Position numbers and translations under genes: made by a program. A DNA stretch of 58,646 nt, filler included, from Jimgerdemannia flammicorona (lineage: Eukaryota), in NCBI GenBank assembly GCA_003990765.1. It is 2 parts of 2 records of this genome, joined end to end, with 100 filler letters (N's around TTAATTAATTAA, not from the genome) between each part and the next. Parts side by side here need not be neighbours in the genome. Positions count along the whole stretch, not along the records: positions 1 to 29,275 come from RBNJ01000508.1; 1 more part is not named here. One strand, given 5' to 3'. The notes under the pieces are model-generated. The model was not told where the DNA came from, did not search any database, and saw only the letters and a list, made by a program, of their open reading frames with translations. Positions 117 to 22,503 of this stretch are shown here, piece by piece. Within the stretch, counting starts at the first letter, position 1. Every line of letters begins with the position of its first letter.

Positions 117-3100
117 TTATATTATGATAACAACCTTCTTGTTCTGTAACTTTGCAAGGAGGGCCTTGTCGCCGATCCCGTTTCCTGAGGAGGAGCGAGC
201 ACGCACAGATCGTGAGCCGCAAAACCATTGGTTCTTCCACCCCACCCCACCCCGGTTTGCGGACCCGCATAACATACCTCGGAGATCCAGCTGGGTCAAG
301 ATCGTGTTCTGCTTCAAAGAATCGGCAAGGGCGGCGGCCCCTTCGTCGCCGATTCTGTTCACTGGGGAGAAGGAATGAGCACTCACATATCGTGAGCCGG
401 ATGCCCCGTCAACCATTGGTTCCCTCACCCGACCCTCCCCCCGGTTTGTGGATCGGCATATATACCTTGGAGATCCAGCTGGATCAAGGTCGTGTTCCGC
501 TTTAGAGAATCGGCAAGTGCGGCGGCCCCCTTGTCGTTGATTCCGTTGTCTGAGGAGGAGAGGAGCGAGGACGCACAGATTGTGAAACGGATGTTCGCCG
601 CCAACCAATGGTTCCCCACCCACCCCTGGTTTGTGGTACGGTATGCATACCTCGGAGATTCAGCTGGGTCAAGGTTGTGTTCTGCTTCAGAGAGTCGGCA
701 AGGGCAGCGGCCCCCTCTTTGCCGATTCTGTTCCCTGATGATGAGGAAGAGCGAGCACGCACAGATCGTGAGCCGCCAACTATGGTTCGTCCACCCCACC
801 CTACGGCTTGCGGACCAGCATACATACATTCGAGATCCAGCTGAGTCAAGGTTGTGTTCTGCTTCAGAGAATCGGCAAGAGCGGTGGCTCCCTTGTCGCC
901 GATTCCGTTCCCTAAGGAGGAGGAGGAGGAGCACGCACATATCATGAGCTGCCAATCATTGGTCCCACACTTCACCCCCTCCCCCCGTTTGTGGACCGGC
1001 ATGACATACTTCGGAGACACAATTGGGTCAAGGTCGTGTTCTGCTTCAGAGAATCGGCAAGAGCGGCGGCTCCCTCGTGGCCGATTCCGTTAGCTGAGGA
1101 GGAAGACGCACAGGTGGTGAGCCACCGCTAATCATTTATTCCCCACCCTGGTTTGTGAGCCGGCATACATACATCGGAGATCCAGCTGAGTCAAGGTCGT
1201 GTTCTGCTTCAGAGAATCGGCAAGAGCTGCAGCCCCCTCGTGGCCGATTCCGTTGGCTGAGGGTGGGAAGGAGGAGCGAGCACGGCCAGGTCGTAAGCCG
1301 GATGCCCGCCACTAACCATTGGTCCTCCACTACACCCTCCTCCACGCATAAATACCTCGGAGATCCAGCTGGATTAAGGTTGTGTCTTGTTTCAAAAGAT
1401 TGGCAAGGATAGTGGCTCCCTCGTCTCCGATTCCTTTGGCTGAGGAAGAGGAGCGAGCACGCACAGATCGTAAGCCGGGTACCCACCGCCAACCTTTGGT
1501 TCCCCCGGTTACGGACCGACATACATACCTCGGAGATCCAGCTCGGTCAAGATCGTGAACTTCTTCAGAGAATCGGCAAAAGCGGCGGCCCCCTCGCCGC
1601 CGGTTCCTTTCCCTGAAGAGGAGAACGAGTAGGCATTGATTGTGAGCCGAATACCCGCCGCCAATCATTGGTTCTCCCACTCCACTCCCACCTCAGGTTT
1701 GTGGACCGGCATACATACATCGGAGATCCAGCTGGGTCAAGGCCGTGTTCTGCTTCAGAGAATCTGCAAGGGCGGCGGTCCCCTCGTCGCTAATTCCATT
1801 CTCTGATGGTGATAAAGAGGAGCACGCACAAATCGTGAGTCGGATGGCCCCCGCCAACCATTGGTTTCCCCCTCGGTTTGTGGACAGGCATACATACCTC
1901 GGAGATCCAGCTGGGTCAAGGTCGAGTTCCGTTTTAGAGAATCAGCAAGAGCGGCAGCCCCCTCGTCGCCGATTCTATTCACTAAGGAGGAAGAGCGAGC
2001 ACAACAGATTGTGAGCCGGATGCCCGCCTTCAACAATTAGTTCTCCCACCTTCCCGCTGTTTGTGGACTGGCATACATACATCGGAGATCCAGCTTGGTT
2101 AAGGTCGTGTTCTGCTTCAGAGAATCGGCAAGGGCGGCGACCCCTTCATCGCCGATTCTGTTATCTGAGGAGCGCGCACAGATCGTGAGCCGGATGTTCG
2201 CCGCCAACCATTGGTTCCCCCATCCCCCGGTCTGTGGACCGTGATACATACCTCGTAGATCCAGCTGGATCAAAGCCGTGTTCTTCTTCAGGGAATCGGC
2301 AAGGGCGGCGGTACCCTCATTGCCGATTCTGTTCACTGAGGAGGCGGAGGAGGAGCAAGCACGCAGAGATCGTGAGTCGCCAACCTTTGGTTCCCCATCC
2401 TATCTCCCTTTGTGGATCAACATACATACATCGGAGAGCCAACTCTGTCAAGGTCGTGTTCTGCTTCAGAGAATCGGCAAGGGCGGCGGCCCCCTCGTCG
2501 CCTATTCCATTCCCTGATGAGAAAGAGAAGCGAGTACACACAGATCGTGAGCCGAATGCCCGCCGCTAATTATTGGTTCTCCCACCTCACGGTTTTACAT
2601 ACATTCAAGATCCAGGTGGGTCAAGGTCGTGTTCTGCTTCAGAGAATCGGCAAAGGCGGCGACCCCCTTGTCGCCGATTCCGTTGGCTGAAGAGGAAAAA
2701 GAGGGAGCACGCACAGGTCGTGAGTCGGATGCCCACTGTCAATCATTGGTTCCACCATCCTCCCCCGATTTGTGGACCGGTATACACATACATTGGAGAT
2801 TCAGCTGGGTCAAAGTCGTGTTCTGTTTCAGAGAATCAGCAAGGGCGGCGGCTCCCTGTTCGCAGATTCTGTTCACTGAGGAAGAGGAGGAGGAGCACGA
2901 ACAGATCGTGAGCCGCCCGCAACCAATCATTGGTGCCCCCATCCCACCTTGAACCAGTACTCATACCTCGAAGATCCAGCTGGGTCAAAGTCGTGTTCTG
3001 CTTAAGAGAATTAGCAAGGGTGGTGGCCCCCTCGTCGCCGATTTCATTCCCTGAGGAGGAGGAGCCAGCACGCACAGATCGTGAGCCGGATGCCCGCCGC

Positions 3101-5549
3101 CAACCATTGGTCCGCCAACCATTGATCCCCCATCCCACCCTTCACCGATATACACACATTCGAGATTTAGCTGAGTCAGAGTTGTGTTTTGCTTCAGAGA
3201 ATCGGCTAGGGCGACCATCCCTTTGTCGCCAATGCTGTTTTCTGAGGAGAAAGGACAGATTATGAACCGGATGCTCGCCGCCAACGATTGGTTCCCCCAC
3301 TCCACCCGGTTGTGAACCAACATACATACGTCGGAGATCCAACTGAGTCAAGGTCGTGTTCTGCTTCAGGGAATTAGCAAGGGCAACGGCCCCCTCGAAG
3401 CCGATTCTGTTCACTGAGAAGGAGCGAGCACGCACAGATCGTGGGTTGGATGCCCATTGGTTTTCGCACCCCATCTTCCCCTGGTGTGTGGACCGGCATA
3501 CATACCACCGAGATCCAGCTGTGTCAAGGTCGTGTTCAGCTTCAGAGACTCGGCTATGGTGCGGGCCAACAAAAGGCCGATTCCGTTATCTGAAAGGCAG
3601 ATTATGAGCTTAATGTCATCATGAGGTTTCTAATAACAATAGAAAATATTTGACATACTTCTGAGATTGAGCTTGGTCAGATTTGCGTTTTTCTTCAAAA
3701 AATCAGCTAGAATGCTTGTCGCTTTATCATTGATGCCTTTACCTTTACAAAGACCCAAGGAGGAAGAGGAAAAATTTAAGTACTTGGCTTTATGGCATAG
3801 CTGTAATAGATGATAATTCATTTCTCACGTACTTTCGAGATTCGCGTCAGTTAAGGTCACGCTCTGCAAAAGAAGCGCTTCCAGGGTGCGGACCCCTTCG
3901 TCGTTTGCTGAAAAAAAAAAAAAAAAATACGCCATTAGTATTTATGTTCTAATTGTCCATGGAAATGCTTTTGCTCAATGGTCAATGCAGTGCGGATATA
4001 CCTCTGAAATTTAGGTCGGCCAAGGTCGTATTTTGCTTCAAACAGTCGACCAAAGGGTGAGGCTCGTCAGGGCCAATGCTTTTCCCTAAATGTAAATGTT
4101 GACAAGTGCAAACTGAAATTATTGCTTTTGCTGAGATCATGACCTTAAGAATCAAATAACAAAAGAACATAAGTGTTCTACATGTAATAGTAAGGCATGC
4201 AAAGTATGTAGGTCAATTTTTTGCTATATACCTCGATCCGACTGAGCCTCCAGAGTAATAAGTGCCGTTCTCGAGATGATTTGCGTAAGCTCTTTTTGAC
4301 TGTAGAACATGCTCCAGTGTAATAACTACTTGGCGAGGAATCTGTAAAGTTAAAACTGACGCTGCTGGTACTTGAGTTCGGCTCTTGCTGATGGGTGGTT
4401 CGTCGTGCGACGATGAAGGATTGGGTTTCTGGCGAGAACGGCAGCGGTGTGATGGCAAGCGCTCCTAGAATTTGGTCTTCGTTGCTTGACTGCGGTGTCG
4501 AAGAAATTCGTGCTAAATTTGCTGCACACTCAAGCAACCGATTGTAAACTTCACAAGCGCTCGGTCGTTGGTCGGGGTCAAGATTCCAGCAGCTCTGGAT
4601 GACACTGTTGAATGCCGTTGGCGCACCGGGGATCACCTCTTCACGCAGTCCATCAAATTTTCTGACGGCAAACGATGCGAGGTCTTGTGGCGTGACACCG
4701 ACGATCAACTGCCACAGCAGCGTTCCCAAGCAGTAGACATCCGACTTCTGCGTGTATTGTAACTTAAAGGATTCCGGCGGCAGGTACCTCAACCGACCAT
4801 AGACACCATGTTCGGAGTTGGCGTCATCTACAGCTCGGCTAATTCCAACATCGATCAAGAGCGTGGTGTACGACTTGTGAAACACTACGTTACCTGGGTG
4901 GAGATCTCCATGGGTAAAGCCCATTTCGTGGAGACTGGCCAGGCGGCTGGCAAGTTTTGTGGAGTATGTTAAGGCAGTGTACCAATCACCATCACAGTCG
5001 CATGGCCGATTCTCAAGAGTACCCATATCAGCAAATTGCATAATCATCAGGTAATGTCCCGTCGAAGGATGCAATGTCAAACCAATGGCTTCCATTGTTG
5101 GAGCATTGTTTCCACAGCGACTCAAATAAACGTTCAACACCAGCTGCATTGATTATGTAAATATACAACAGTTATACTAAGATGTCATGTTGTGTAGAAA
5201 TACAAAGTGAGGCTTACAGTCGGGATCTCACCTCTTCAACCATCGTCTCTTTTAACTCTTTGGCGGCCACACGATTCGCCGTTTTAAATACAAAAAATTT
5301 TGCCTCGAAAACTTTGGCAAATCCTCCTTGAGCGAGTTGCGTAAATCCTTCAAGGTTGCTGCTAGGAATCCAGGCAAGGTATGGCTCCAGTTGCGGTACT
5401 TTCAAGGAGTTAAGACAGGCACGCAGCTCTTTGTCATATTTTTTAAATGCATTCTTCCATGTTAAGATGGACACCTTCTGGATGCTGTCCAGCTGGTGGA
5501 AGGGCTTGATTAGGGATAGGAGGTGGTGGAGGTGGTTTGGAGCAGACAT
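117..5549 (-). CDS. Multi-exon protein kinase + RI-like (NLRC3/ribonuclease-inhibitor-type) LRR array gene. Exons: 5232-5549 (start uncertain), 4232-5143, then LRR exons 4002-4085, 3833-3907, 3659-3742, 3506-3589, 3330-3413, 3158-3241, 2967-3050, 2792-2875, 2603-2686, 2430-2513, 2252-2335, 2081-2164, 1898-1981, 1719-1802, 1529-1612, 1356-1439, 1173-1256, 1010-1093, 828-911, 651-734, 466-549, 278-361 and terminal exon 117-184
   Basis: Kinase motifs GGFAKVF, VAAKEL, HGDLHPGN, DVG, YLPPE, KSDVYCLG and CWNLDPDQRP. A phase-0 GT..AG intron (5144-5231) joins the two kinase ORFs. Every LRR exon is flanked by AG (mostly YAG) and GT (mostly GTATGT) and encodes xNxIGDEGAAALADSLKQNTTLTQLDLx. No stop codon arises at any junction when the exons are joined in order. 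The kinase-to-LRR frame is unresolved (see findings). Confidence 0.85.
185..3600 (-). repeat. Tandem array of ~165-190-bp exon+intron units
   Basis: The introns as well as the exons are mutually similar (plus-strand GAGCACGCACAGATCGTGAGCCG...CAACCATTGGTTCCCC...GTTTGTGGACCGGCATACATAC), showing that whole units were duplicated. Confidence 0.9.
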
Positions 5550-6786
5550 AGAGAAGGAGTGGACATATCTAAGAATTCGTGTCCTTGACTAATAAGTACA
5601 CCCCTTGTGATAAAGATCTTGCCAATTATATCACTGATAAATGACAGGGGTGTCCAGGTGCGACATAGGGTATTCCGGACCTAAATTGCTGAGACACACT
5701 AACAGAGCGACTTTGCACCGGCATACATCATAAAACTACATCTTGTGCATTAAATGTATGGCATGGATACACAAATGTACGATACCGGTTGAGGTTGTGT
5801 AATGTACAACCTCGGCATGATACGTTAGAGTGATGCTATATCGGGATGGAACTCGGTCTTTCCACTTGATACATCGGTAGCCTTCAGCAGCTTGATACGC
5901 CGAGCTTGGTGACTTGATACGATGATGCGCCGGAATAGGCCTCGACGATACGTTGATTTGCCGGAATATTATACGGTGATGCGCTGGTGGAACCTCGGCA
6001 CCTGTTTTAGGAATGCGGCGGGTGTTCGTTTTTTGAGACAGGAGCCAACACCAAAATTCACGGGCGACTGGGAAAAGGGCCGAAGTAGCCTGAGGTAGCA
6101 CGAAGGTTCTTGTCGACCGGAATATACTGTTAATCATCGGTTCTGCGGTTAATTACCGTTCTGCGGTTTATTGTTGCTCCATTAGCGTCGTTCCACATTT
6201 CACGAATAATCGCCGCTTTGCGGTTAGTCGTCGTCGCCGTTGTGCGGTTAATCGTCGTTGTCACTCTATAGTAAATCATCGTTCGTGGTGTTCAGAACGG
6301 CGATATCATATTTACGAATTTCGCAAATCATATTTGTCCGATTGATCTGAACAATTCCCAAATAATCTTACGAGTAATCAGTATCGGATGCTTGTATTCA
6401 TTACACAGCCACACACAAGTAGGACAATAATAGCATAAGCGTATTTGCACATCATTTTTGGGCTGGTAGGGATGGACAAACTAGTTATCTGCGTGTGGGG
6501 TTGGTAACAGTATGCACTGCCGATCCATCTGAAATGTGCTAGACCACAATAGTAGATACCCTGAAGTAGATGAACTGAAAGTTAAGGTAGCTGCTGAGTG
6601 TAATAACACTTATTTCAACCCCTCTTGTATCCTTGGATAACTTGGGTAATAAGGTATTACTTAGGGACTTGACACACATATGTATGTCTCAAGAAGTTTT
6701 TCAATTGTTCTTTTACTTAGTAGTATTTACTAAGATTTGAGGAAGTACTGTTTTTTTGTAGCAGAATAAAGATGTTGCTCTTCTTT

Positions 6787-6818: not shown

Positions 6819-7649
6819 AGATGTTGCTCTTCTTTGATAATCATAGTTACAAGAGACTTGTTCTTGTTGTGCATAGACTGAATCTCTTATGATTCAGATT
6901 TAAAGAGGGTTTCTTTTTAATTTATATATATATCAGTTCTTAGTTCTGATAGAAGTTAGCTAGGCTTCTGAAGTTTAGTCAGAAATACTAGAGTAACTTA
7001 GGATTCATTACTAAGGAACTCAAAAGAGTGTGTATAGAGAGAAATTTGTACTTGACTAAGAGCTGATTTTTTTTTGAAATATAATTATTAAGGTATTTAT
7101 ATATTGGCTAAGTAATATTTTATAGTTTTCTGACTATTTGTTGTTATGTAGTAGTCACTGAGTCCTTCAAATATATCAGATTCTCTCCAAGGTGTATCTC
7201 TTAGACTAACTACAAGTTTGTTATAAGCAAGTTCTTATTGGAGTGCCTTTCTAAGGTCTTATATTCCTCAAACTTCTTATCTTTAAACTGTCTTGTTATC
7301 TCTTAAATTGCTTGTGTAGAATTGAGAGTAAGTGAACTTGACTGACTTTATTTCAAAGGAAATAAGAGAAGTGTTTATACAAAATATAATTCAATAGTTG
7401 CTAAGTTATAAAGCTAAATATAAATTTCAATAATCAAATAAAATACTGAAATACAGAAAACTATGGTTGTAAGTATAAGTTCAAGTGTCTGTACAAATAG
7501 TTATATAAGTTCAGGATATCAATAGAATTTTGGTGATATAGAAAAAGGATACCAGAAGAATTTCTGAGTTATGCAAGATCAGAATACTAGAAGAATAATA
7601 GTTATATAGAAAAAAGATACTGGTAGAATCTGATATTACCAAGAACTTA

Positions 7650-8470
7650 AAGCAGAATATTCAGAACCATGAGGGCTTCATCTTCATTACTATCATTAAG
7701 ACCAGATATCAGAGATAGGATGTCTTCAAAGGAGATGAGGTCTGTGAACATTTCATCTATTTCATATATATTATATGTTTTGCATACTTCATGCATATCA
7801 TACAGAATGATATCATCATCAATGACATTATTATGTTTAGTGGCAGAGAGAACAAGGAGATCTGAGGCTCTCCAATCTATAACATTCTCTTCTATAAAAT
7901 AAGAAACAAATGTGGGGTCTTAGAGAGATCTAATCTGAATGTTGGAGCCTTGAAATTCTAAGATTAATTGTTACAAGAATTGATCAGAATTGTCCTTGAG
8001 AATGGGATTCTAGAACTCTCTTATCTTATCACTATTGAAGATGATAGTAGACTGGGCTTCTGTGGCCATAATGGTCTCTAGTATATTGGTATGGCAGGCT
8101 GACAGTTTCTTAAAGTTTGAGATCCTAGTATACTCTAAGTTGGGGATTGACCACAGTACATATCTGAAGACCTGATGAATCTTCTTAGCTATTCTTATTT
8201 CATATATATCTATGGGAGTAATATCTTGTATTTCTTAGTAACTGGCCTGAGAGAATTCCTGATAGAGAAGGTTTCCTAATTCATACTTCTGTCACATCCA
8301 GAGATATTTGGTAGCAATGGTGATCCTTATTTCCATTTTGTAGCAATAGAGAATATAATGATAGGGGTCACCAATACCCAGGTCAAGACTAAGAGTCCTT
8401 CTTATATAGATCCTCATAGCTCTTCTGATGTCTTAAAATATCCTTTTCTGGACTGAGAGATCTTGGTGGT
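7650..8470 (-). pseudogene. Decayed accessory ORF downstream of the host Gypsy integrase, homologous to the solo-LTR ORF
   Basis: Manual translation of 8100-8288 gives KYELGNLL...DITPIDIYEIRIAKKIHQVFRYVLWSIPNLEYTRISNFKKLS, followed by an acidic stretch (7650-7900). The 42-residue core aligns without gaps to the 11321-12418 ORF. Confidence 0.65.
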
Positions 8471-9352
8471 TCCTGGACCTTGAGATTTGGTAAGTAGTAG
8501 GTATTTTGTTTATAGTAAGTCTTCAAAACTATTTCTGTGAGCTTTATTTGAATTTCTGCTACTACAGTTTCTTAATTCTTCTTTTATATTTCTTAAGATG
8601 TCTGTCTTGTGATCACAATGACTTACAGTTAGTCATCATTACTCATCTTATAGCCTGGATGAGTCATACTATATGATCTTCTTTACTCTGATCTAGTAGC
8701 TTGTAAGAAAAGACTATCTCCTATACTGATGTCATTATTCTAAGATTATCATTATATCTTCCTTCTGAATAAGGATCTTCCCTTGAACATTTTTATTCAT
8801 TGGTCTAGTTCTGAAAAATTTGCTGATCCCATAACCTCTGGTAGAGGGTTGAAAAGTGGTATTTATGGGCTGATATCTTCTCTATATATTTTGGCATGAT
8901 AGTGAAGGGTCACTCCCTTTATATAGAGCAAGGACCTGATTCTGATCTTGATCAATCAATCAGTTGATGGTTTGAACTTCTCTAACTTTAAAAGTCTCAT
9001 AAATGAGTAGTTATTAGTATTATATCCTTTAGAGAATGGTTCAAATAGATTGCCTGCTAGTTATAGGATATGCTATTATGATTTGTAAACTAAAATCTTG
9101 CAGGTGGTCATTATGTTTTACTTTTCTTGTATAGATTCATGGTACTTTTTGAGTCTGTTTCTGTGTACTATAGTAAGCAGTATAGTTCCTGAGAGTTTTC
9201 TAAGTCAGAAGGTAGTTCTCTTATTATCTTATATATAGAAGAGTTCTTCCCATTTGGGCTTTAGTTTTCATGACTATGAGGCTTCTACTATATTTTAATA
9301 TAGTAGGACCTTTTCTCTGATTTGGATGGGTTCTAGAGTCTTGTAATTCTTT

Positions 9353-9360
<8 letters not shown>

Positions 9361-9384
<24 letters not shown>

Positions 9385-9939
9385 ATAGTTACTTGGACTT
9401 CTCTTTATTATCACTCAATCTAAAAATAATAATACATTTGTACCCACAACCCCTCAACCAATACTCTTCAGATCTCCTTCTCTACTCTTTATCTCTCTCT
9501 GCTGGAGTATAATCCAGCTGTCCACTATCTGTACCCTCCCTTCACTTTTCTTATAAATACAATTCACTAGACTCTGTCAGCCTCCCCTCACCTGGTCCCC
9601 ACCCTCTCTACCAGCCATTCAAAATGTCAAGTATTAACTATTCCCACTATACTACCTTAGCCCCAACCTCAATCTGCTGGCTCTTCTCAAAGACATGTAA
9701 TCAATGTCTAGCCAGCCCAACCCAAATTGCTAGAGCCTATCTCAAAGTCAACTATTCATCTCCAACCCTGCTCACTAACCTTCAGCAGAGGTCCCTCCAT
9801 CTCTTCCCTTCCCCCCCCATCAGGGCCTATAGTCCTAACCAGTTTGTAATATGGTGTCAAAACTCCCCCAAGACTTCACACTCTCTAAGCTAATGTTCAG
9901 GTATTTGTACTACTCCCCTCTTCTGGCCAATGTCCATGC
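9361..9939 (-). mobile_element. 5'-truncated L1/Tx1-type LINE copy with polyA tail, inserted in the Gypsy integrase C-terminus
   Basis: PolyT at 9359-9384. The minus strand matches the 3' part of the 16908-22503 LINE (TACAAATACCTGAACATTAGCTTAGAGAGTGTGAAGT vs TACAGACGCCTGAACATTGGCTAGGAGAGTGTGAGGT). A 15-bp TSD ATTCTTTTYTGYATT lies at 9346-9360 and 9940-9954. Confidence 0.85.
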
Positions 9940-10632
9940 ATTCTTTTCTGCATTCTTCCTTATCAGTGCTTATAACTTGATGATGTAATCTTTAGTCTTC
10001 TTTCTGATTTGGTATAGTCTCTGGATTTCTGAGTCAACTCATCTCTAAGTTAGATCTAGATTTGTGACTAAGGTTCTATTAGAATCTTCTTCTCTGAAGA
10101 GTAGTTCTCTTAGAGTAAAGTATGTACTCTATAATTATATATCTCATAGGACAGAGAGAGTAGTTAGGAGGTAGTTATTCCAATTATTATATATATCTGA
10201 GATCTTTACCAAGATATTCTTAAGGGTCTTATTAGTTCTCTCTGTCTGTCTATTTTCTTAAGAGTGATATACAGTAGTCTTGATATACTGAATCTTATAT
10301 TTCTGATATATTATTTCATGGAATCTATTGACAAATTCTATACTGTAGTCTATAGTGATTTGCTTTGATGTCTTGTAGTGGCAGATGATTTCTCAGTACA
10401 GGAAGTTAGCTATAGAGAGAGCATTGGCTTCTTGTAATGCTCCTGCTTCTATCTATTTAATAAAGAGGTCTATGATATGTAACTATGATACAGTAGTTTT
10501 CTAATAGTGTTACTGATAGTAGTCCAATAATATCTATTACAATGTGGTGGAAGAGGATAGGCTCAATTCTTGATGATCTGGGTGTCTGGTCTTACTGATC
10601 TTGTTTCTATTTTTAGCACTTGTCACACCTTT

Positions 10633-12706
10633 TGTCAGAGGGTTGCTTTTTAGAATAACCGTTACGTAGTTCTGTAAGGATTTTCTGGATATTCTGGATG
10701 TTCTGGAAGACCGTTTTCTTATGGTCAAGATCAATTTCGTATGGAGTACGTCCTCTACGCTTATTGATTTCAAGATTAGATTGACGTCTCAACCAACGTC
10801 CTTTTCTGGACTAGTTCTGGATGTTCAGGATTTTCCATATTTCAGGAAGTTCGAGAAACTAAGACCAGCTTAGTTGAATTGGCGTATCGCTGCAGACAAT
10901 ACCCAATTAGGAAATTTCGTGATGGGGTTAGGAGTAGGACCTAACAGAGAGCAGATTTACTTAAGAGTAGTTTGTGGGTTATGGAATAGGTTTATTTGCT
11001 ATTCATGATATTGCTATACTAGGAGTATTTGTATAAAGGGATATTGTGGGGAAGTGCTCAGGAGTTGTGTTCGGATTGTTCAAGTCTATTTGAGTCTCAG
11101 TTTCTGAGGTCTGGGGGAGGGGGTATTTATACTAGTGAGGGGCTATCTGGACTAAGCTAGATATGGATATAGCACTAAGTGCTTTGCTGAGTCGGAATAC
11201 AGTCACGTAGTATAAGTGTGATCTGACATGTCAAGGGATCGTCTGACTGCTGAGTCAGTTCACAGTCACGTCATACAAGGCTAATCTATCTATACTATGA
11301 CTGCTAGACTATTTATAGGTTTAGGCACTATCTGGGTAGTCTTCGATGACATCACCATCGATTGCATCATCTCTGATGAAGTAGTCATCTAGGAAGAGTA
11401 GTTCATGGATTACTTCTCCTTGTTGGCTGAGGTAGTAATACATTGGGACTTCATCTCCGTCCCACAAGATAGCATCATCTGTTTCGTATGCTGGATAAGA
11501 TATTGGTGGGCGAAGGATGGGTGTATTGTCTTCGCTTTCATCGGATTCGCTGTCTGCATACCTTCTATAAGTTACAGCACTATGAGTCGCAGGGTTGTAG
11601 TAAGCTGGCAGCTGTGGTTCGAGTCGCTCATACTCAGGTGGTGGGGTTGTTGGTTCGATCTCTAGGGTTGTTTGGAGGTATAGGTTGTGTTCTCTGGTCT
11701 CTTCATTATAGTTGAAGTAGTCGGGGGTGAATGCGGGTTGGTATTCGTGGTAGTGGTCATTGTCCCAATAAGTCTCGTATGTAGTTATGAACTGTTGTAG
11801 GTCCATCGGCAAGGTTGGCGGAGTGATCAGGGTTGGCAGAGATCCTTGGCTAAAGGTCATGTCGGCATCAGAGGGATCATTGTCTTCTGCTTCATCTTCA
11901 TCGAAGTGGATTATATCATAGACGTCCTTCATGGCATATCCAACTTGAGGCATTTGCAGGATGTGGTCATCAGGGTGTAGGAAGGTTCTGTCTGTGGTTT
12001 CGACATACTCGAGGTACTTGTGGTTGATTTCTTGTATCATGTCATCGATTTGGCCATAGGACAGGGTAGCAGCCATTTCACTGGTAGTAACTCAGAGGCA
12101 GGGAATAACGGTGTTGTACTCATAGAAGAGTTCTCGATGTTTGCGGGCGATGAGCTTCTGGTGTTGAGACATCTGTGTCATGTCTGTATCATGGTGGTGT
12201 TCGACCATGTCTTCTAAGAGGCGGCTGATCTGGTAGTAGCTTGAGATTTGTCCTATTTGGTGGGCCTTGCTAAGCATGTTCAGGGTGTTCCATCGGGCTT
12301 CCACGAAGTAGAGGGGTGCCAGGCTATAGATATTCATGAGGGGCAGAGGGGGTGTGGCTTGGTTGACAATGGCATTCCAAATGTCAGCACGGATGTGGTT
12401 GTAGATCTCAGTGGTCATGTTTGTGTGTTTGGAAGTTGTGGTTGTTGTTTGTTTTGGTTCTCTGATTCGACGCGTCTTGGTGCTCGGTATATATGCATTT
12501 GGTCCTGATTGGTAAGGTTCCGTTTGTGTAGATCTTGTGTTCTGTGACTTTGTATTGACTCAGCTTTGTGCGCTGTGACTTTGGTTTGACTCAGCTTCAT
12601 GATCAAGCAGGTGATTTCCAGATTTGTTCAGAGGTCGCATATGATTTCAGTGGCTTGTTCAGAGGGTGATGTGTAATTTCGGTAGCTTGGAGGTTGTGCG
12701 CTTACA
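10633..12706 (-). mobile_element. Solo LTR (2074 bp) inserted in the host integrase zinc finger
   Basis: Termini TGTCAG...CTTACA and a 5-bp TSD CCTTT (10628-10632, 12707-12711). Removing it restores FVKRCDKC. Minus-strand TATAAATA at ~11124-11131 and AATAAA at ~10991-10996. CpGs are retained, so it is younger than its host. Confidence 0.88.
11321..12418 (-). CDS. ~365-codon ORF of unknown function inside the solo LTR (predicted U3), with one in-frame TGA at 12092-12094; helical-looking N-terminal domain plus acidic/Pro/Tyr-rich tail
   Basis: ORFs 12092-12418 and 11321-12076 are in the same frame, separated by TGA GTT ACT ACC AGT GAA. Homology with the 8100-8288 relic runs across the stop. 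Confidence 0.75.
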
Positions 12707-14504
12707 CCTTTTGACAAATTGGTATAGGTCTTCTTCTATCTTAGACCACTATATAGTTCTTCTTACTTTGTTATATATGTTGATTTCTTCTAAATGTCCT
12801 TGTTCATATACTTCCTTCATTACTTGATACTTCTTATGTTTGAATATTATAAGCTTTTCTCCTTTTCTGAGTATAGTGTTATCTAGTTCAAATTATTTTT
12901 AAGTCCAGTTGATAATGATAATAGTCTAGAGTTCAAGGTGGTTGGATATCTTCCACTACTCAAGATAGCTGATTAATCTATAGTATAGTTCCTTATTCAT
13001 ATTGAATAGTCTTGATGGGGGTGTTTTAGGATATCCTTGAGAGTGCATCAGTATTGGTATTGGTTCTTCCTAGGTAGTGCTTAATAGTATAGTTATATTC
13101 TTATAGCCTGTAGATCTATCTGATATATATTTCTTTGAGGTTCAGAGTGTGAAATAGCCAGGTAAAAGTAGAGTGATCTGTTTGAATAGTGAAGTGTTTT
13201 CTGGTTAGGTAGTAGTAGAACTTGTCTATTGCTCAAACTACTGCTAAGCATTCAAGCTTATATGACTTGTAGTTCTGTTCTACTTTATGGATACCTTGGC
13301 TTACATAGGAGATAACATATTTATGTCTATCTTTCTTCTAAGCTAGGACTGCTCTAAGTCCTATAGTACTTACATCTGTCTGCAGGATAAACTCTAGATT
13401 CCAATCTGGTCTTCTGAGAATGGGTACTTGGGTCAATCTGGTCTTGAGTTTATTGAAGGTTTCTTGACATTTCTTGATCTATTTGAATTTGATCTTCTTT
13501 TTCAGTAGCTCATAGATAGGTACTGCAATATTGGAGTATCCTTTGATGAATCTTCTATAGTAGGAGGCCAGTCCAAGGAAGGCATGGACTTCTATAGCTA
13601 TTCTAGATCTTGAGTAGGCTGCAATAGTCTCAATCTTCATAGAGTCTGTATGAATTCCAGTCTGGTTGATGATGTGTCCTAGATAGATGATCTCCTGAGC
13701 TACAAACTTGCATTTCTTAGGCTTGATGTAGAGGCCATGCTCCTTGAGCTTCTTGAGAGCTAGTTGTATGTAATTGATATATTCCTGTGTAGTATTACTG
13801 AAAATGATCATATCATCAATATAGACAAAGAGCCATTTTCCAATCTCATTACTGAAAACTCTATTAATCATTCACTAAAAACTTGCTGGAGCATTGTATA
13901 TTCCAAATGGTATTCACAGGTAGATATAGGTGGTATCATATATAATAAAGGCTAATTTCTCACTGATATCTTAAGTGAGACCAATCTGATGAAAGCCTGA
14001 GAATAGATCTAAGATGGTATAGTATTTGGCTTCACTTCTAAAAGTGGTAAGAATTTCTTAAATATTTGGCAAAGGCTGTCTATCCTTCTTGGTGATTGCA
14101 TTGAGCTTCCTGTAATCAATGTAGAGTCTTGGGGCAAACTCTCCAGGCTTACTTCCTTTCTTTAGGGCAAGGATAATGAGTGAAGCCCAGGGGCTGATAG
14201 CTTGCTTGATGATTCCAGCTTCTTTTATTTCCTTAAGTTCTGCTCACAGCTATTCTCTGGATACAGATGGTATAGGTCTGGCTTTTTGGTAGATAGGATT
14301 GATATTGTCAGTATCAACTTTATAGTAGTACTTGAGTTCTTGATTGTGGATATCTCAGAAGTCTGTAACAAGTACTCCTTTGTTCTGATACAGGATCTTG
14401 AGAAGTTGTTCTTCTAGGAGAAAGTTTTTTCTAATAATATATGTATACTTATTCTGGTCCTTGTCTTTCTTATGCTTGAGTTTGGTAATCTTGATAGCAG
14501 TATA

Positions 14505-14930
14505 GGCTCCTCTTTCAGTAGATCCAAAGCCTTGTTCTTCTCTCTTAATCTTGATAAGTTCAATGGCTTCAGGATCTTAGGCTTCTTGATTTTATAGATC
14601 AGTATCTGGCCAATCCTGTCATACTTCTTGACTTTGAATGGAGTGGTGGGATTGTAATTCCTAACTATGAGAAAGATCTCACCAGTGTAATCAGGGTCAA
14701 TTATTCCTCCTTCAACTGAGATTTTGCTTTTGGCCAGACTGCTTCTGGTCTTGATAATTCCAATATAGTTCTCTGGCAACTTGACTCCAATTTTAGTACC
14801 AAGTAGAGTAGTGGTTTGTGGTTCAAGGATAGTATTTTGAATACTAGCAAGATCTATTCCTATGGCTCCTTCAGTCTTATATTCTAGAATCTTGGCTTTA
14901 GGGTAGAACTTCTTAACCTTGAGGATGATG
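14505..14930 (-). pseudogene. dUTPase domain within the Gypsy pol, upstream of RT
   Basis: Trimeric dUTPase motifs GAIGIDL, RSS, GIIDPDYTGEI and DRIGQ, plus a frameshifted motif 5 (EQGFGST). Confidence 0.9.
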
Positions 14931-16907
14931 TCTAGTTCTTGTTCCTTCTCATCATCACTGTCAGCTTAAAGCTCTGGGGGCTAGTCATCTTCTTTAGCTT
15001 TCCTTTTTGCTTCAGTAGCTTCTTACTTATACTTCTATTGGTAGATTTTCCTGACTTCACTGATATAGGACCAGTAGTCATTCAGGTGTTCAGAGCAGTA
15101 CATTCTGGTATCATGGGGGTATCTTTCTTATAGGGTACATATAGCCATTAATGATCTTATTGTATTACTGCTCATCTGTGAGCTTGAATATTTTATTCTT
15201 ATTCTTGTATACCAAATATATAAAGACTTCTGTATCCTCTTTATCTTCTTCCTCTATCTAGTAGTACTCCTTTGTGGACATTGATAGAGACTTATACCTT
15301 TCTTCCTCTATAGTTGATCTGCATCTTCTGAGCATTAAGGTCAATGATAGCCTTGGTCTTGTGAAGCCATTGGTTGCCAATAAGGATGTTATAGTTAGTA
15401 GTGCTTGTAACAATTATATTTACTGGGATAGTAGCTCCTCCTATCTTGATGGGTACTTCTCAGATCTTGCCTACTTGTATACCATCTACTATGATATAGA
15501 CCATCTTGATAGACTCTTCAATGTCCTAGCCTAGGCAGTCAATTGTCTTCATCAATGATGATATCAAAGATATAATCTTTAATCTAATATAGAATATAGG
15601 CTGATGTCTTGTACTGGTCTTCAGATTCTTTATCTGAGTCTTTGGATTCTTCTTGTATATTGTGAGCTTCTACAATCTTATACTCTTGATTCTTGACAAT
15701 GGTTGCAAGTCCTACTCTCAACTGCTATCTGAAGGTAGAAACTTTGGCTAGTTGTCCAAAAGTAGCATTGACCTTCTATTCCTTGAGGTCCTTGTAGATA
15801 TTATACTGGTGGATCTTGATCTTATATAGTTTTTATTCTTTCTTGCTTTCACTTTCTCCTGAGACTAGAGTAGTGCCTTCAATAATTTAGTAGATAGCTT
15901 CATCTAACTCTATGTCTTGATCAATCTTCTTGAGTTGGGTCTTGCTTTGAATAGTGATAGCTGGGGTCTTCTTTGGTCTTCCAACTGGCTTACTGTTGCC
16001 CTTCTTATCATAAGGCTTGGACTGTGTTCTGGTATCTTTAGTAACAGAGTAGAATTCATACTCCTCATAGTATTTTTTATCATCAGTGTCACTAATCTCC
16101 TCGATGACTACTGCATTAGTTTATTCTCTAGTTCCAGTAGTATTGCTGAATTGGACCTTGCATCTTATTTCAGTTATACAACTCTTTATATAGTGGCCTT
16201 CTTCTCTATATCTAAAGTATGTAATATTATATTCTTCTATAGTAACTGTAAATCTCTGTACTAGTCTCCTGTTGGCACTTCAGACTTCTCTAACAATATC
16301 ACTAAGGTGTGCAGTTATCTCAGTAAACTGCTTGATGAGTTCCTCCACTGAGTTAGCTTTGGCTATCTTGGGGGTAGGTGGGGATGGTTGTCTGTTTACA
16401 ACTATAGTAGGTATGATACTGATTGACTTTGATGGCTCTATCTTGATACCAGTTATTTTCTCCATTGAGTATTCAGCAGGATGTCTGGCAGTCCAATATC
16501 TCTGTGCAAAGACCACTTTCTGATCAAGAGTCAGAGCAGCTGAGATAGACCAGATTTCTCATTTTTTTCACTATATCTCCTAGGTGGGTAGTTATTTTGG
16601 TGAACTGTTTGGCAAGCTTCTCCATAGGGTCACTGTTTCTCTACTACTCTGTAGCTCTTGGCTAAGGTGTGTTTCAATTGATCATTATAGTAGGGATCAT
16701 GTTGATTGCCTTGGGTGCTTCAATTCTAACTCTAGTGACTCTTTTCATTGTATGGTCTTGTGAGTGTCTGGCTATCCAATATCACTGAGCATAGGTGACC
16801 TTCTATGGTAAATCCAGAACTATCATCTTTCTCCAGTAACATTCAGATTATACAATCTTTTGGCAACACTTTCGACACAGTTTCTGGAGACAAGCTACTA
16901 GTATCAT

Positions 16908-19900
16908 GGTGACCAATGAGCATCCTGAGGTGCATACTAGGCAGGGTGGCCCTGGAGCATTTGAATGGCAGCAAGTGGGGAGAGGCCCTGGCTTGGGGGG
17001 AAGCATGAGGGGCCTGCTGGTGGGAGGCCACAGTAGAGGAGGGGGTGGAGCTGGAGATCAAGGGTCTGGCAGAGCGAGCTTTGTGGAGAAGATGAAGGGG
17101 GGTCAGCAGGGAGCTGGACTGGAGAGCTGGCTGAGGGGGGGGAAGGTACTGGTGAGGGCTACCAGGCAGCAACCTCTTGGGGGTACCTCTCTAGAGGGCC
17201 ATAGGGGTGGAGCTGGGGGAGTAGTGGCTGGGGTGGGGACTGCTGATAGGGGTGTGATAGATGATCTGAAAAAAAATCTAGATGGGACTGCTGATGGTGA
17301 GCCAAGCAGTGGGAAGGGCACAAGGCCTGGGGACCTGGCAGATGGTGTAACAGGACTGGCAGTGGCTCCATTACTCAAGAAGTCAATCTCAGAATTTGCA
17401 GTCACAATGTGTTTCCAGAGCTTGGTGGTGATGGCAAAAATGGTCCTGGGGCTGATTGCGAAGCAGATGAGTGGGGCAGCATCGGTTAAGTTCCTGAAGG
17501 GCCTAGAAGGAGTAGAGGTGGGATTTGAGGAGGTTGGGCTACTGGAGGAGGCTTTGAAGGCTAGGATGAAAGTGGGCAAAATATGCATACTGATGGTGAG
17601 ATATCTGTGGTGGGACCCAAGAGTAGTGCAGCTTCTGGTGAAAGGAGTTCCCACTATTACTGCTGTAGAGATAAGGAAGAGAGTCAAGGAGATTATGGCA
17701 GAGTATGGGGAGGTAGTTGATATTGGGTTCAGAGTGTGAGAAGGAACCTCTCTCCAGACAGGGGATGTTGACATCAGGATCTGGCTGGCTAGACAGGAGG
17801 CTACTGGAAAGGCTCGGGACTGGCCCTCAGTGATGGTGTGGGGGGCTATCTTGTGCAAGGTGATGAGAGTAAAGGAGAGTAAGGAGGAGAAGGAGGATTT
17901 GCTGGAGGTGCTAGAAGAGTTGCATAGGATAGTTGAGAGGAGGGCGAAAGTATGGAAAGTATTTGAGGCAGCAATGCATCTTGAGGTGGTTGGAGGAAAG
18001 TGAGTCTGCATCAACAAGGAGGTGTGGGAGAGGTCCCAAGGGCATAGAAGGCAGAGGGAATTGTTAGCGAAAATGGGGGCAGAGGCGACAAGGAAGGCAG
18101 GCGATAGTGCAACTACCGGAGGTACTGAGGTGAGTGTCTGGGCTGCTAGTAGTGGATGGAATGAGGAGGGGGGGCAGGGGGAGGCCGTAAAGGTGCCGAG
18201 CAAGAGTCCATATGAGGATGGCACACTGGAGGTTTGGGAGGAAACCTGGAAGGATTCACCTTCACCCTCCCCCCTTATCAGAAGGGGTCTGGCAGTGAGA
18301 GGTAGAGTGGTGGAGGATGTGCCAATGCGCAGTGCTCAGCAGGTGCACTTTGGAGTTCTAAATGTAGAGAAGGGGGGATTGGTAGAGGTGACTGGGGAAG
18401 AGGAATTGGTAGATGTCCTGGAGGAGGGATAGAATGAGTCAGCAAGTATGGGGGCTGATACTATGATGTTGGATGGAGGGAGGCCAGTGACCCCAGGAGG
18501 GAAGAAGGTAGGAAACTTGCTCTGGGTATACCAGATGATAAACAACTTGGCAGTAGAAGAGCTGGGGGAAGTCGACCTTCGAGTGATGAGCAATGAGCAT
18601 TGGGTGAGAATCCTGCAAGGTGATGGAGTAGAGGTGGCATTGAAGGTGGAGATCCTGGTGGTGTACTTGGAGGAGGAGGGGTATAAGGTAGATAAGAAGA
18701 GGAAAGCTGTGCTGGCAATTGTGGCGGGTAAGCGGGCTGCCCACTGTTGGACTAAGAGGCATGGGCTGTAGCTCTGGCAGGAGGCTTGTTTGGAATATCA
18801 CGAGGAGTTTGAGGAAAAGGAGGATGGGTAGATGGCTGAAATCCTGGCTGAATTGGAGGCCAAGAGAATCGAGGAAGCTGAAGCTACTGCTGAGTGCAAC
18901 CTGGATAGAGTACAGGAGGAAGTGGACATGGAGCAGTAGAGGACATATCTGAAACTATATAATTTCTCTTATGAATAGTACAACTAACATTTTTTCTTTG
19001 AACATGAATGGGTTACAGGATGCTTATCAATATAAGAACATTTTTACTTGGCTGAAGGAATTGGAGGCTGATCTCTTCCTCTTGCAGGATGTCAGGTATG
19101 AGGATGACTTGGATAGACTGGAATGGATGAAGGAGTGGGGAGGTGAGGCAGTTTGGAAGGGCAAGGTTGGAATTCTGGTATGGAAGGGCAGAGGGGAGAT
19201 ACAGGATATGCAGAGCTGGGGGGATAGATTGGTCTGGGGAGAGTGGATACATGCAGATTGGGAGCCAGTCATGGTGGGCTCCTGTTACTGCCCTGTGGTA
19301 TGAGGCAAGCAGGTGAACTGGGTGATGGGCCTACAGGAGAGTGGGATTCTTGTGGAGGTTGGGGTAGATGTGTTGGGTGGGGACTTCAATATGGTCCGAG
19401 ACATATTGAGGGATAGAACTAATGGAGGACGAGGTGCTGTGGGGTGGAGTGGAGGACTGGCAGTATGGGAGGAAGTGGAGAGACTTAGTGCTCTGGTGGA
19501 TGTGGGTAGGGAATGTTGGGGGAATAGGAAGGTGTATACACACTGGGCTGGGGGTCTGGGGACAAGGATTGATTGGATTCTGATGGCCAGCTGCTGGGGC
19601 CTGGATGTTTGGAAGTCACTAGAGATGGAATGGTGTCCTTGGTCAGATCATTGGGGGCTTTTGGGGCAGGGACATTTTGGGGGGAGTGGGGATGGACCCA
19701 GACATTGGCGTCTCAATTCCTCCCTACTAGATGATAAGATCTGGTGAGGTAAATGGGCCAAAGTCATTCAAATGCAGGTGGAGTGCTGGAGGCAGGAAGG
19801 TGTCACAGTTGATATTCAGTGGATGAGGATGAAGGAGATGGCTAGGGCCTTCTGGAGTGAGGCTGGTATGGAGGCAGAGAGACAGAGGAGGCAGTGGGTG

Positions 19901-22503
19901 CAGTGGGCATCTCATAGACTATCTAGACTCTTGGAGGACTGGGCAAGACTAGCGATATTGGAGGGAGAGGAGGACTGGCATTCGATAAGGTTCCAAATGG
20001 AGGTGGCTGAACTACAACAGGTGCTGCAGAATGAGGAGGAGGCTAGGGTCCAGGGTCTGGCAGTATGGCTTCGTTGGCAGGGACTGGAGGAAGGAGAGTG
20101 GCCCTTGAAGTTTCTTATGAGGGCCCTTCAGGCAAGAAGAGTACAGCAAAGATGGGAGGGGGTGCTTAATGCTGATGGTTCATTGGTGCATGGGGTACAA
20201 GACATTCTTGGCTCGTTAAAGGAGTATTGGAGTAGATTGTGGAGTAAGGAGGAGGGTGGGGCAGGTGCTGAGGACATTGATCAAGTCTTGGAGGATTGGC
20301 ACGCTACCTGAGCAGCTGGGTTGGATGACTTAGTACTGCCAGTGCTAGAGGAGGAGATCCACCAGGTTCTTGCCATGACAACCTTGGGTATGGTGCCTGG
20401 AGAGGATGGTCTGTCCTGGGACTTCTGGAAAAGGATGGTGGGAGTCCCTGAAATAGTGGGAGAGATGAGGGCACTGTGTGATTGGATTCTACAGATGGGG
20501 AGATGGGTGGGAGAACAGGACCTAGGGTTAGTGACATTGCTTTATAAAAACAAAGGAAGCCGAGAGGACTGGAAGAACTAGAGGCCAATTATGCTACTGG
20601 ATATGGACAGAAAGTTGGTTACCAAAGTGGTGGTTGCAAGGTTGCAAAAGGTGGCCCAGCAAGTCTTGGGTGAGGAGCAGTGAGGCTTTGTTGGAGGCCA
20701 GCTCATCAGGGATAGTACAGCATGGGTACATGGCATTATTGAAGAGGTGCGAGCCAGTGGACTAGATGGGCATCTGGTCTTTTTGGACCAGAAGAAGGCC
20801 TATGACTGAGTGTGACAGATCTGGTTGGCAAAAGTTTTGGATAGGATTGGGATCCCACAACAGTTCAGAACTGCTATGGTCAGTCTACTGGAAGGAAGTA
20901 GGGTAGCACTCATGTATAATGGACATAGAGGGGTAGTATGTATTTCTCCTGGGTAGGGGGGTGCTCCAGGGGGATCCACTGTCCCCCATTTTGTATGCTT
21001 TGTCTCTGGAGCCCTTTATGGACAGAATAAGGCAGAAGATAGTAGAGCTCTCTATCTTTGGCATTGGGTGGAAAGTAGGAGCATTTGCAGATGATATGGT
21101 GGTCGGTCTGAGATCAGTTGCAGATATTGAGGAGCTCAAGAAGACAGTGGAGTGGTATAAGGCAAACTCTGGGGCTAGGCTTAATTAGCATAAGTGCAAA
21201 ACAATGGTGTTAGGCAATGGTCTAGCAGGCAGGGAGATTATTGGTATGATTGTCCCTACTGGTGAGGCAGTACAGTACTTGGGTATCTATCTGTCAGTGT
21301 ATGGGTCGGTTCTGCCTAGACTTTGGTGGGAGCAGTGGGTTGGCATTTGAGAGGAGGCCCTAAGGAGTTGGAGGGGCCGCCAATTGTCTCTGATGGGCCA
21401 CATTTCGATTCTGAATGTCTATTGGCTGCCAAAGGTGTGGTATCTGCCTTATTATCTAAACTTCCCAGCTTGGGTGGTGAAGCGATTGATGAAGCTGGCC
21501 AAGGGGTGGATCTGGGCTGGAAGGTAGAGTCAGATCAACTGGGAGGTCTTGTCCTTGCCAGTGGCAAGTAGGGGACTTGGGCTGGTTGACTTTCCTAAGA
21601 GGCTACACTGCTTGAGAGCTTGGTGGCTGAAGAGAGCAGTAGAGTTAAGAGGGGGTGGTTGGGTTCCCCTACTGCAGAAATTCTGGGAGATGAGGTCCTC
21701 TCTGAGAGGTTCGATGGGTGATCTCCTAGCACTTGTGGGCCTTCAGAACTCTGGGCAATTATGGTACAAAGACTTCTGGTGGGGAGTGGCAGAGGGAGCC
21801 TGCCGCATTGGGATTAGGTGGTAGAGAAATGAAGGGGAGGAGGCTTGGGACTGGGCGATGTGGAGATGGGACCGAGTGATACTGGGTGGCATTCCCTTAC
21901 TTGAGTTTGACATTGGTGATAGGATTGAATGCCAACGGGGACTAGGCCAGGATCTGTGGCCTAGTAGTTGGCAGGGTGTAGGAATTGGTGAGGAGTGGGA
22001 CTGGTATAGCATATGGGCCTGGAGTGCCAAGGTGAGAAGGTGGTTGCTGCTAAAGTACTGGGTGGTCTGGTGGTATGTGCTGAGGCGAAATGTCATGCTC
22101 AACTTCCGCTCTAGTCACCTTATTGAGGGGGGCTGCTTTGACTGTGAAGAGTATTATAATGTAGGACATATGTACAGACGCCTGAACATTGGCTAGGAGA
22201 GTGTGAGGTGCTTAGTTCCTTTTGGCAGAACATTGGGGATCATCTGGAAGTGGTGTGCAGGAGAGCTGATGTGTGGGGGTGATGGGAGGACTTAAGGAGT
22301 AGACTAGAGGGGGGGGTGGGGAAGGAATGGCTGACATTAGGGTAGGTATTGGCCATTTGGATGGGGCTGGCCAGTCACTGGCTATTTGTTTTTGAGGATA
22401 GGAGGAAACTTGGCTCCGAGGCCAGGCTGATGAGGTGGCATAGCTTTATGGAAGACACCTTGACAGGCTAGTGGCTGGGTTGGGGGTTGAGAGGGGGTCA
22501 AAG
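16908..22503 (+). mobile_element. Degenerate non-LTR retrotransposon (L1/Tx1-like: ORF1 ~16908-18950; ORF2 from 18971 with APE endonuclease, RT and a C-terminal Cys motif)
   Basis: APE motifs SLNMNGL, GGDFN, TRIDWI and SDH. RT motifs PGEDGL, FLDQKKAYD, QGDPLSP and FADD. It interrupts the Gypsy gag and is flanked by GTATCAT (16901-16907, 22504-22510). Confidence 0.92.

Follow-up and report, generated by a model that had tools for sequence, protein, structure and literature searches.

The window analysed here (the whole 58,646-nucleotide stretch of Jimgerdemannia flammicorona DNA) contains a 2074-bp long terminal repeat (LTR) of a Ty3/Gypsy retrotransposon family, designated family A, with a protein-coding open reading frame (ORF) inside the repeat. 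The repeat has TG (10633-10634) and CA (12705-12706) termini and is bordered on both sides by a 5-bp target duplication (Table 1). None of the largest 20 direct repeat families and 25 inverted pairs listed fell within 10633-12706. The original prediction of a solo LTR with a 5-bp duplication and no internal terminal repeats was thus confirmed. An older Gypsy element (family C) harbours the solo LTR between its RNase H and integrase regions, both in the same orientation. At the empty target site, TTGTCA...TGACAA forms a short inverted repeat that surrounds the duplication (10620-10632 and 12707-12718).

The ORF starts on the minus strand with an ATG at 12418, which has an A at position -3, and runs for 365 codons to a TAA at 11323-11321. 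It was predicted as a sense ORF of about 365 codons ending ~190 bp before the LTR TATA box, and this agreed with what we found: the TATA box (TATAAAT, 11131-11125) lies 190 bp past the stop. The window copy is broken, as two in-frame stretches, 12559-12092 and 12091-11321, are split by a single TGA at codon 109 (12094-12092).

Table 1. Coordinates of the solo LTR, its ORF and the host element in the window.
Feature	Position	Strand	Basis
3' LTR of the family C host element	7141..8756	-	family C LTR comparison
Degenerate LTR-ORF homolog in the host element LTR, open piece 8013-8234, approximate ends	7650..8515	-	family B profile
Degenerate pol of the older family C Gypsy element hosting the solo LTR	9940..14926	-	domain scan, alignment
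Target-site duplication, left copy (CCTTT)	10628..10632	.	sequence inspection
Solo LTR, 2074 bp, chromodomain- and dUTPase-bearing Ty3/Gypsy family A	10633..12706	-	genome copies, paired elements, Pfam
R-U5, inferred from TATA position, approximate boundaries	10633..11100	-	
Main LTR TATA box, context GTATAAATACCC	11125..11131	-	copies; families A, B, C
21-bp motif, two inverted copies (11249-11269, 11186-11206) before the main TATA	11186..11269	+	motif comparison
LTR ORF, 365 codons, selected in the family, broken in the window copy	11321..12418	-	copy alignment, selection tests
Acidic, Pro- and aromatic-rich C-terminal region, aa 171-365, also selected	11324..11908	-	open-copy composition, selection test
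N-terminal ~144-aa domain common to B, C, D, E; predicted all-helical, low confidence	11987..12418	-	profiles, alignment, model
Premature TGA, codon 109, CpG site, TGA in 13/69 copies	12092..12094	-	copy alignment
CCAAT and TATATA, inferred ORF promoter	12488..12512	-	copy conservation
Two copies of the 21-bp motif GCTGAGTCR-N5-[AC]AGTCAC (12595-12575, 12564-12544), upstream of the ORF	12544..12595	-	motif comparison
Target-site duplication, right copy (CCTTT)	12707..12711	.	sequence inspection

A DNA search of the organism's own genome (231 Mb) with the LTR gave 5969 candidates, and the 40 that were scored yielded 40 full-length copies at 92-95% identity. When 30 LTR copies were cut out, 17 were followed by one primer-binding site, 8 were preceded by one polypurine tract (PPT) and 5 had neither; three of these five carry an exact 5-bp duplication. 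Copies L006 and L030 also have TG..CA ends with a 5-bp duplication. Five contigs (C1801, C1487, C586, C218 and C5317), found via their integrase, contain paired LTRs around a 6.52-kb interior, and exact target duplications flank the elements in two of them as well as in contig C439. A Pfam scan of the interior detected gag, a zinc knuckle (zf-CCHC), dUTPase, protease, RNase H, the integrase zinc finger and core, and Chromo; the reverse transcriptase (RT) core was assigned by alignment to an RVT_1-positive stretch of the window, not by direct Pfam scan. The order in pol is protease, RT, RNase H and integrase, with dUTPase at the pol N-terminus and the chromodomain after the integrase. By this domain order and its chromodomain, family A is classed as chromovirus-like Ty3/Gypsy. 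Because the same 2074 bp flank complete gag-dUTPase-protease-RT-RNase H-integrase-chromodomain elements, the repeat is not an internally deleted element; the paired LTRs around gag-pol with their target duplications ruled out that candidate. Each full element carries two copies of the ORF, as had been foreseen.

The C439 element (copy L031, 481-8489) is a non-autonomous derivative that has both LTRs, gag, dUTPase and a protease joined to the chromodomain, with a 3.86-kb interior that lacks RT, RNase H and integrase. Its LTR pair differs by 78 transitions and one transversion. The gag frame of family A is open for ~285 codons before the first gag methionine, with no in-frame ATG (L120, ~8928-8074, minus strand; L031, ~2700-3517). 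This stretch is under purifying selection (ratio of nonsynonymous to synonymous changes per site, pN/pS, 0.27 and 0.32), and a homologous stretch occurs in family B, a related family described below. It may be reached by a non-ATG start or by splicing; the glyco-Gag of murine leukaemia virus (MLV) is a precedent for a non-ATG gag start. Copies L064-L092 match the same LTR at ~67-79% identity, are AT-rich, have no open frames and appear hypermutated. A sister family was considered for these ~70%-identity copies and set aside: since their alignment extends over the entire LTR, contains many indels and leaves no frame open, they were taken as hypermutated copies.

We then compared the ORF among 69 young copies, a set partly picked by protein search and thus leaning to open frames. 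The ATG was kept in 68 and the TAA in all 69. Codon 109 was CGA in 50 copies, TGA in 13, CAA in 4 and CGG in 2, in line with the proposal that the internal stop arose by a CGA>TGA change. Premature stops occurred at 22 positions, and at each of these codons a single C>T or G>A change is enough to create a stop. Pairwise differences between copies were ~89% transitions, with 43% at CpG. Among integrase-selected copies, the ORF was unbroken (no stops, no deletions) in 2 of the 29 that cover it whole, and the integrase-chromodomain stretch was unbroken in 3 of 33. Most present-day family A copies are thus dead, including the window copy with its stop at codon 109.

Selection was tested on 35 copies chosen by integrase, not by the ORF, with changes split by class; since the changes were oriented by frequency and not on a tree, the ratios are approximate. 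The ORF had 14 nonsynonymous and 72 synonymous T>C/A>G changes on 409 and 169 sites (pN/pS 0.08, p 2e-25), and 36 nonsynonymous and 30 synonymous transversions on 1743 and 318 sites (pN/pS 0.22, p 7e-9). The corresponding values for the integrase-chromodomain stretch were 0.14 and 0.12. C>T/G>A changes were neutral in the ORF (0.94) and near neutral in the integrase (0.82); this class represents host deamination after insertion. When the ORF was divided into quarters, the T>C/A>G signal was present in all four, and transversions were neutral in aa 91-175 (1.03).

The flanking and out-of-frame sequences served as controls. The 47 codons preceding the ATG were neutral (pN/pS 1.6 and 1.4) and contained shared frameshifts, ruling out a longer N-terminus via the upstream open frame. 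In the region after the ORF, five of six class-by-frame tests were neutral, and the remaining one gave 0.46 (p 0.01). Shifted frames of the ORF showed no comparable excess of silent changes in the T>C/A>G class. An antisense or shifted frame as the selected one was rejected, as the other five frames have a median of 6-29 stops per copy versus 1. No ORF indel was common to two copies (0/13, 6 of them from one copy), whereas 21 of 78 indels in the non-coding LTR and 3' spacer were. These results indicated that the ORF is under purifying selection in its coding frame, comparable to that on the integrase. Two findings that could have told against the prediction, shorter LTRs in full elements and neutral evolution of the ORF, did not appear. 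We are nearly certain that the ORF is a genuine, selected LTR gene. In this high-copy, chromovirus-like Gypsy family, the LTR contains a protein-coding accessory gene that the transposing lineage has kept under purifying selection.

Outside this genome, only two relatives of the ORF product were found among 1.84 billion representative proteins. One is a fragment with 95% identity; the other, a 247-aa protein, is 66% identical over 250 aa, shows gaps that stay in frame and ends at the same place; it is the sole match at near length, and its best match within this genome is 70%. Protein libraries contained no relative among longer proteins or among those of 30-69 aa in searches that preceded the five-family alignment described below, and proteins of 70-199 aa were covered by the 1.84-billion-representative search only. 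Scans of metagenome and viral contigs detected no relative.

Within the genome, family B has the same primer site as family A, 32-55% protein identity to it over most of gag-pol and an 813-bp LTR. It carries a sense ORF of ~280 codons between pol and the PPT, ending at the PPT. Direct comparison of the N-terminal domains of A and B gave a weak signal (nine pairs with 0-11 of 1000 shuffles each; BLAST E 5e-4), and so did hhalign on these two families alone (probability 3.5%, E 0.013). A family B profile found homologs of the domain in three more families: C, the host element in the window, with a ~1.5-kb LTR after the PPT and an ORF from LTR position 243, and D and E. An alignment of all five families spans ~144 aa, needs few gaps and shows 18-22% identity; the homologs have open frames. 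Leave-one-family-out profiles scored 24-28 bits for A, 86-92 for B, 74-88 for C, 50 for D and 36-43 for E; none of 2000 shuffles reached the score of any family, the maximum for family A being 16. To judge from these profiles, the gene is a member of an undescribed protein family common to several repeat families here. It lies inside the LTR in families A and C; in family B its place is between pol and the PPT. The family E copies (L254-L257, L206) contain the core domain only, in a 166-codon open frame without an acidic tail, and have at least 150 matches in the genome.

The C-terminal region (aa 171-365) of an open copy contains 23% D+E, 4% K+R and 14% W/F/Y, bearing out the acidic character suggested for the product. 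The last 100 aa of the A, B and C proteins each have 20-25 D+E, 4-7 K+R and 17-22 W/F/Y/L. In the N-terminal domain, a basic helix is conserved in all five families. The product has no hydrophobic, membrane or signal segment (maximum Kyte-Doolittle value 0.86 over 19 aa). Searches of Pfam, PHROGs and PDB sequences gave no match over the cut-off (Pfam E 0.1 for the family A protein; E 1 for the first member of the alignment, A3). In the Atlas, the full ORF protein had no usable match; the family B core had feature scores of 0.95-0.96 to unnamed phage/bacterial clusters of 105-127 aa and 0.92 to a cluster in which 56% of the members have DUF6192, which serve as leads only. The core may resemble DUF6192, DUF3102 or DUF1016_N-like small helical domains, with no such match in Pfam or PHROGs. 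A search of the genome with PF19691 found no match anywhere, and its controls were equally silent.

The main TATA box was intact in all 63 copies covering it. Families A, B and C have exactly the same context around it, GTATAAATACCC, and in all three it is located downstream of the ORF; this shared position suggests that the ORF is in U3. A second promoter-like block precedes the ATG, with CCAAT at 12512-12508 (64 of 66 copies) and TATATA at 12493-12488 (66 of 67 copies) ending 70 bp short of it. The proposal that every solo LTR leaves an autonomous expression cassette was strengthened by this conserved block; it did not stand for every copy, given the stop at codon 109 here and the 2 of 29 copies that are open. 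Family B has a second copy of the GTATAAATACCC context ~45 bp before its ATG, and family C has a TATA-like word ~85 bp before its own. In family A, a 21-bp motif occurs in four copies, two per promoter, with most positions 0.9-1.0 conserved. The best upstream-downstream match was 17/21, compared with a maximum of 16 in 30 shuffles. The pattern, which was derived from these four sites, matched nothing else in the window and nothing in the 6.5-kb interior.

Contigs covering parts of the ORF and sequence downstream of the main TATA were obtained from two runs guessed to be RNA, which may be DNA. As contigs reveal neither start nor strand nor level, these runs were not counted as expression evidence. 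Their summed contig depth was 4030 and 920 just after the main TATA versus at most 32 in bins from 884 onward. The high depth is located at L120 592-883 (LTR ~1630-1920; window ~10790-11080) and was absent in a third run. An abundant short LTR transcript after the main TATA is a lead only, as contig depth cannot rank parts. Several conserved TTCnnGAA/GAAnnTTC units, which we take to resemble heat-shock element units, are near the LTR 3' end (window 10701-10918), and a TATAAAG lies ~85 bp into the family A interior. Together they may perhaps form a third promoter, for the gag region.

Based on this layout, we propose a model for the gene. Once at the 3' end of the genomic RNA, behind pol, it would be unreadable from the head of that RNA, and we therefore infer that it is transcribed from its own promoter at the LTR 5' end. 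Every insertion and later solo LTR would receive a copy, because reverse transcription copies U3 to both ends. The protein would join an acidic-aromatic activation tail to a small helical domain that binds nucleic acid, and would act on element-specific sites, which in family A are the four 21-bp motifs, at its own promoter and at the main one; the result would be a feed-forward switch resembling that of foamy-virus Tas. Host cytosine deamination would later kill most copies, including the one in the window. Judged from the layout, we give a Tas-like transactivator acting on sites at both promoters a little less than an even chance. A wider proposal is more tentative: an env-less Gypsy clade would encode its own sequence-specific activator, of an undescribed family and from a second promoter, and a shift of the LTR boundary would, in some lineages, have brought gene, promoter and response elements into U3. 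Each insertion or young solo LTR would then be a self-amplifying cassette acting in trans on relatives and nearby host genes, a 'complex retrotransposon' paralleling the complex retroviruses; this is possible, though we would not expect it.

Several points weigh against a transactivator. Selection on the gene is weaker in family B (0.45 and 0.40; 13 copies) and family C (0.31 and 0.64; 36 copies), and family E lacks the acidic tail. The structure models are of low confidence (pLDDT 33 and 49). No DNA-binding fold was found with them (Foldseek, none at E 0.001; VIA, best Z 4.4, which is background), empty searches that are uninformative with models of such confidence. The 21-bp pattern was derived from its own four sites with a small margin over the shuffles, and motif sharing holds for family A only; the best shared upstream/LTR match in family B was 16/21 with a shuffle maximum of 17. 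The motif contains TGAGTCA, which we take to be the AP-1/Gcn4 consensus; a host basic leucine zipper (bZIP) factor could therefore account for the motif with no need of the ORF. No run on record as RNA contains the LTR stretch. Finally, selection as strong as that on integrase would be easier to account for if the protein had cis preference than if it diffused freely among the thousands of copies in the family.

Among other roles, the product may be an anti-silencing factor that binds element DNA or the host methylation/RNAi machinery and keeps new copies active, as VANC does in the VANDAL transposons. We regard this as unlikely. It would suit the heavy host deamination of repeats, seen in the transition-rich, CpG-biased differences and in the ~70%-identical hypermutated copies, as well as the family-specific repeated motifs within the LTR and the fast divergence of the gene between families; however, no Pfam family similarity supports it, most copies were mutated nonetheless, and an acidic-aromatic tail in three families would better suit an activation domain. 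About equally unlikely is a cis-preferring function in the particle or on the RNA (packaging, nuclear import, RNA export or integration targeting), like that of retroviral Vpr/Rev-type accessory proteins. The selection matches that on integrase, itself a cis-preferring particle protein, the basic helix could bind RNA, and family E keeps only the core domain; yet a separate promoter and mRNA would weaken co-translational cis packaging, the motif common to two promoters is left unexplained, and no transmembrane or signal segment is present for an Env-like function.

It is improbable that the protein is a repressor of copy number or timing, which would bind the same LTR sites or Gag and limit transposition, with solo LTRs as brakes. 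The gene is present in each solo LTR at birth, transcription from the upstream promoter would by geometry cross the main promoter and could interfere with it, and the tailless family E protein could be dominant-negative. The family has nevertheless reached a very high copy number (thousands of first-look candidates), and a gene of this kind would be lost fast in selfish lineages. Least credible by far is a non-functional ORF (a chance or captured frame) or an internally deleted retrotransposon: no database family or confident fold, just two outside relatives and a frame broken in most copies would agree with it, whereas the paired LTRs around gag-pol with target duplications, the strong codon-level selection with its neutral controls and the distant homologs with open frames in other families contradict it.

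In mouse mammary tumour virus (MMTV), the superantigen ORF sag overlaps the U3 of a ~1.3-kb LTR, in the available part of the source (PMC9147501). As with sag, the LTR owes its unusual length to a complete accessory ORF, which is present in duplicate, once at each element end. Unlike Sag, a type II transmembrane superantigen of a mammalian betaretrovirus, the product here has no hydrophobic segment or family match and comes from a Gypsy chromovirus without env. Foamy-virus Tas binds response elements in the internal promoter as well as in that of the LTR, according to the part of that report available (PMC517496). The family A gene resembles Tas/Bel1, as far as the accessible parts of the sources describe it (PMC517496, PMC8670036), in being a 3' accessory gene with its own putative promoter, in having one type of site at that and the LTR promoter, and in joining a compact domain to an acidic tail. 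Family B, with gene and TATA before the PPT, has nearly the foamy-virus Tas layout. The likeness is one of layout, with no match in sequence or fold from the Pfam and low-confidence model searches, and in families A and C the gene and its presumptive promoter are, unlike in foamy viruses, contained entirely within the LTR.

LTR retrotransposons can carry additional ORFs, including env-like ones in Athila and Bagy2 and antisense ones in Grande, RIRE2, Retand and Boty. In the available part of that source they are internal, mostly between pol and the 3' LTR, with none named inside an LTR, and gene23 of Grande has its own promoter and a nuclear product (PMC7264820). Like these, the ORF here is present in most copies of its family, is conserved like gag-pol and has no assigned function; unlike the additional ORFs described in that part, it is sense, not env-like, and found on either side of the PPT in related families (PMC7264820). 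Fungal chromoviruses with dUTPase include PosPlaTy3-3/-4/-5 of Postia placenta and Tmt1 (PMC2864245, in the part available). They share with family A the Gypsy order protease-RT-RNase H-integrase-chromodomain plus a dUTPase, here at the pol N-terminus; in contrast to family A, no LTR gene is described for them in that part, where a figure legend lists an 'additional ORF with unknown function' (PMC2864245). The available parts of PMC6431247 and PMC13547354 show no ORF inside an LTR. Cassandra, Helenus and Ajax are non-autonomous elements with small-RNA-derived sequences inside their LTRs, 5S rRNA-like in Cassandra, as stated in the part of the source available (PMC10886601). They resemble family A in having a gene-derived unit inside a retrotransposon LTR, and differ in that the unit here is a protein gene and not a small-RNA-derived sequence. 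In the open-licence literature, searched by titles and abstract openings with subscription journals and Repbase outside its coverage, no publication was found to describe a retrotransposon LTR with a protein gene in it. An LTR lengthened by an ORF is itself known from MMTV sag; what is new here is an undescribed, selected accessory gene family of Gypsy elements, located inside or just outside the LTR.

Elsewhere in the window, a ~590-bp insertion with opposite GC skew (9353-9940) splits the integrase of the host element. On the minus strand at 242-5588, nineteen spaced repeats, which we assume to be leucine-rich-repeat exons, are followed by one ORF that is presumably protein-kinase-like. At ~16800-22200, a G-skewed stretch contains ORF pieces that we take to be like a non-LTR retrotransposon endonuclease and other parts. 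The region 29376-58646, beyond two N runs and contig C508, has many GC-rich palindromic repeats and group II intron-like ends, and presumably resembles a fungal mitochondrial genome.

Retrotransposon LTRs are treated as non-coding and are masked in annotation. Here, a gene selected like integrase sits in the LTR of a family with thousands of matches in a 231-Mb genome. The same gene is on either side of the PPT in related families, so an LTR can gain or lose it by a boundary shift. With a motif shared by the two promoters and a separable tail, the activator reading is open to simple reporter assays. Should the protein be an activator, retrotransposons would, like foamy viruses, bring along a transcription factor of their own, and solo LTRs, which are usually deemed inert, would start out as trans-acting genes.
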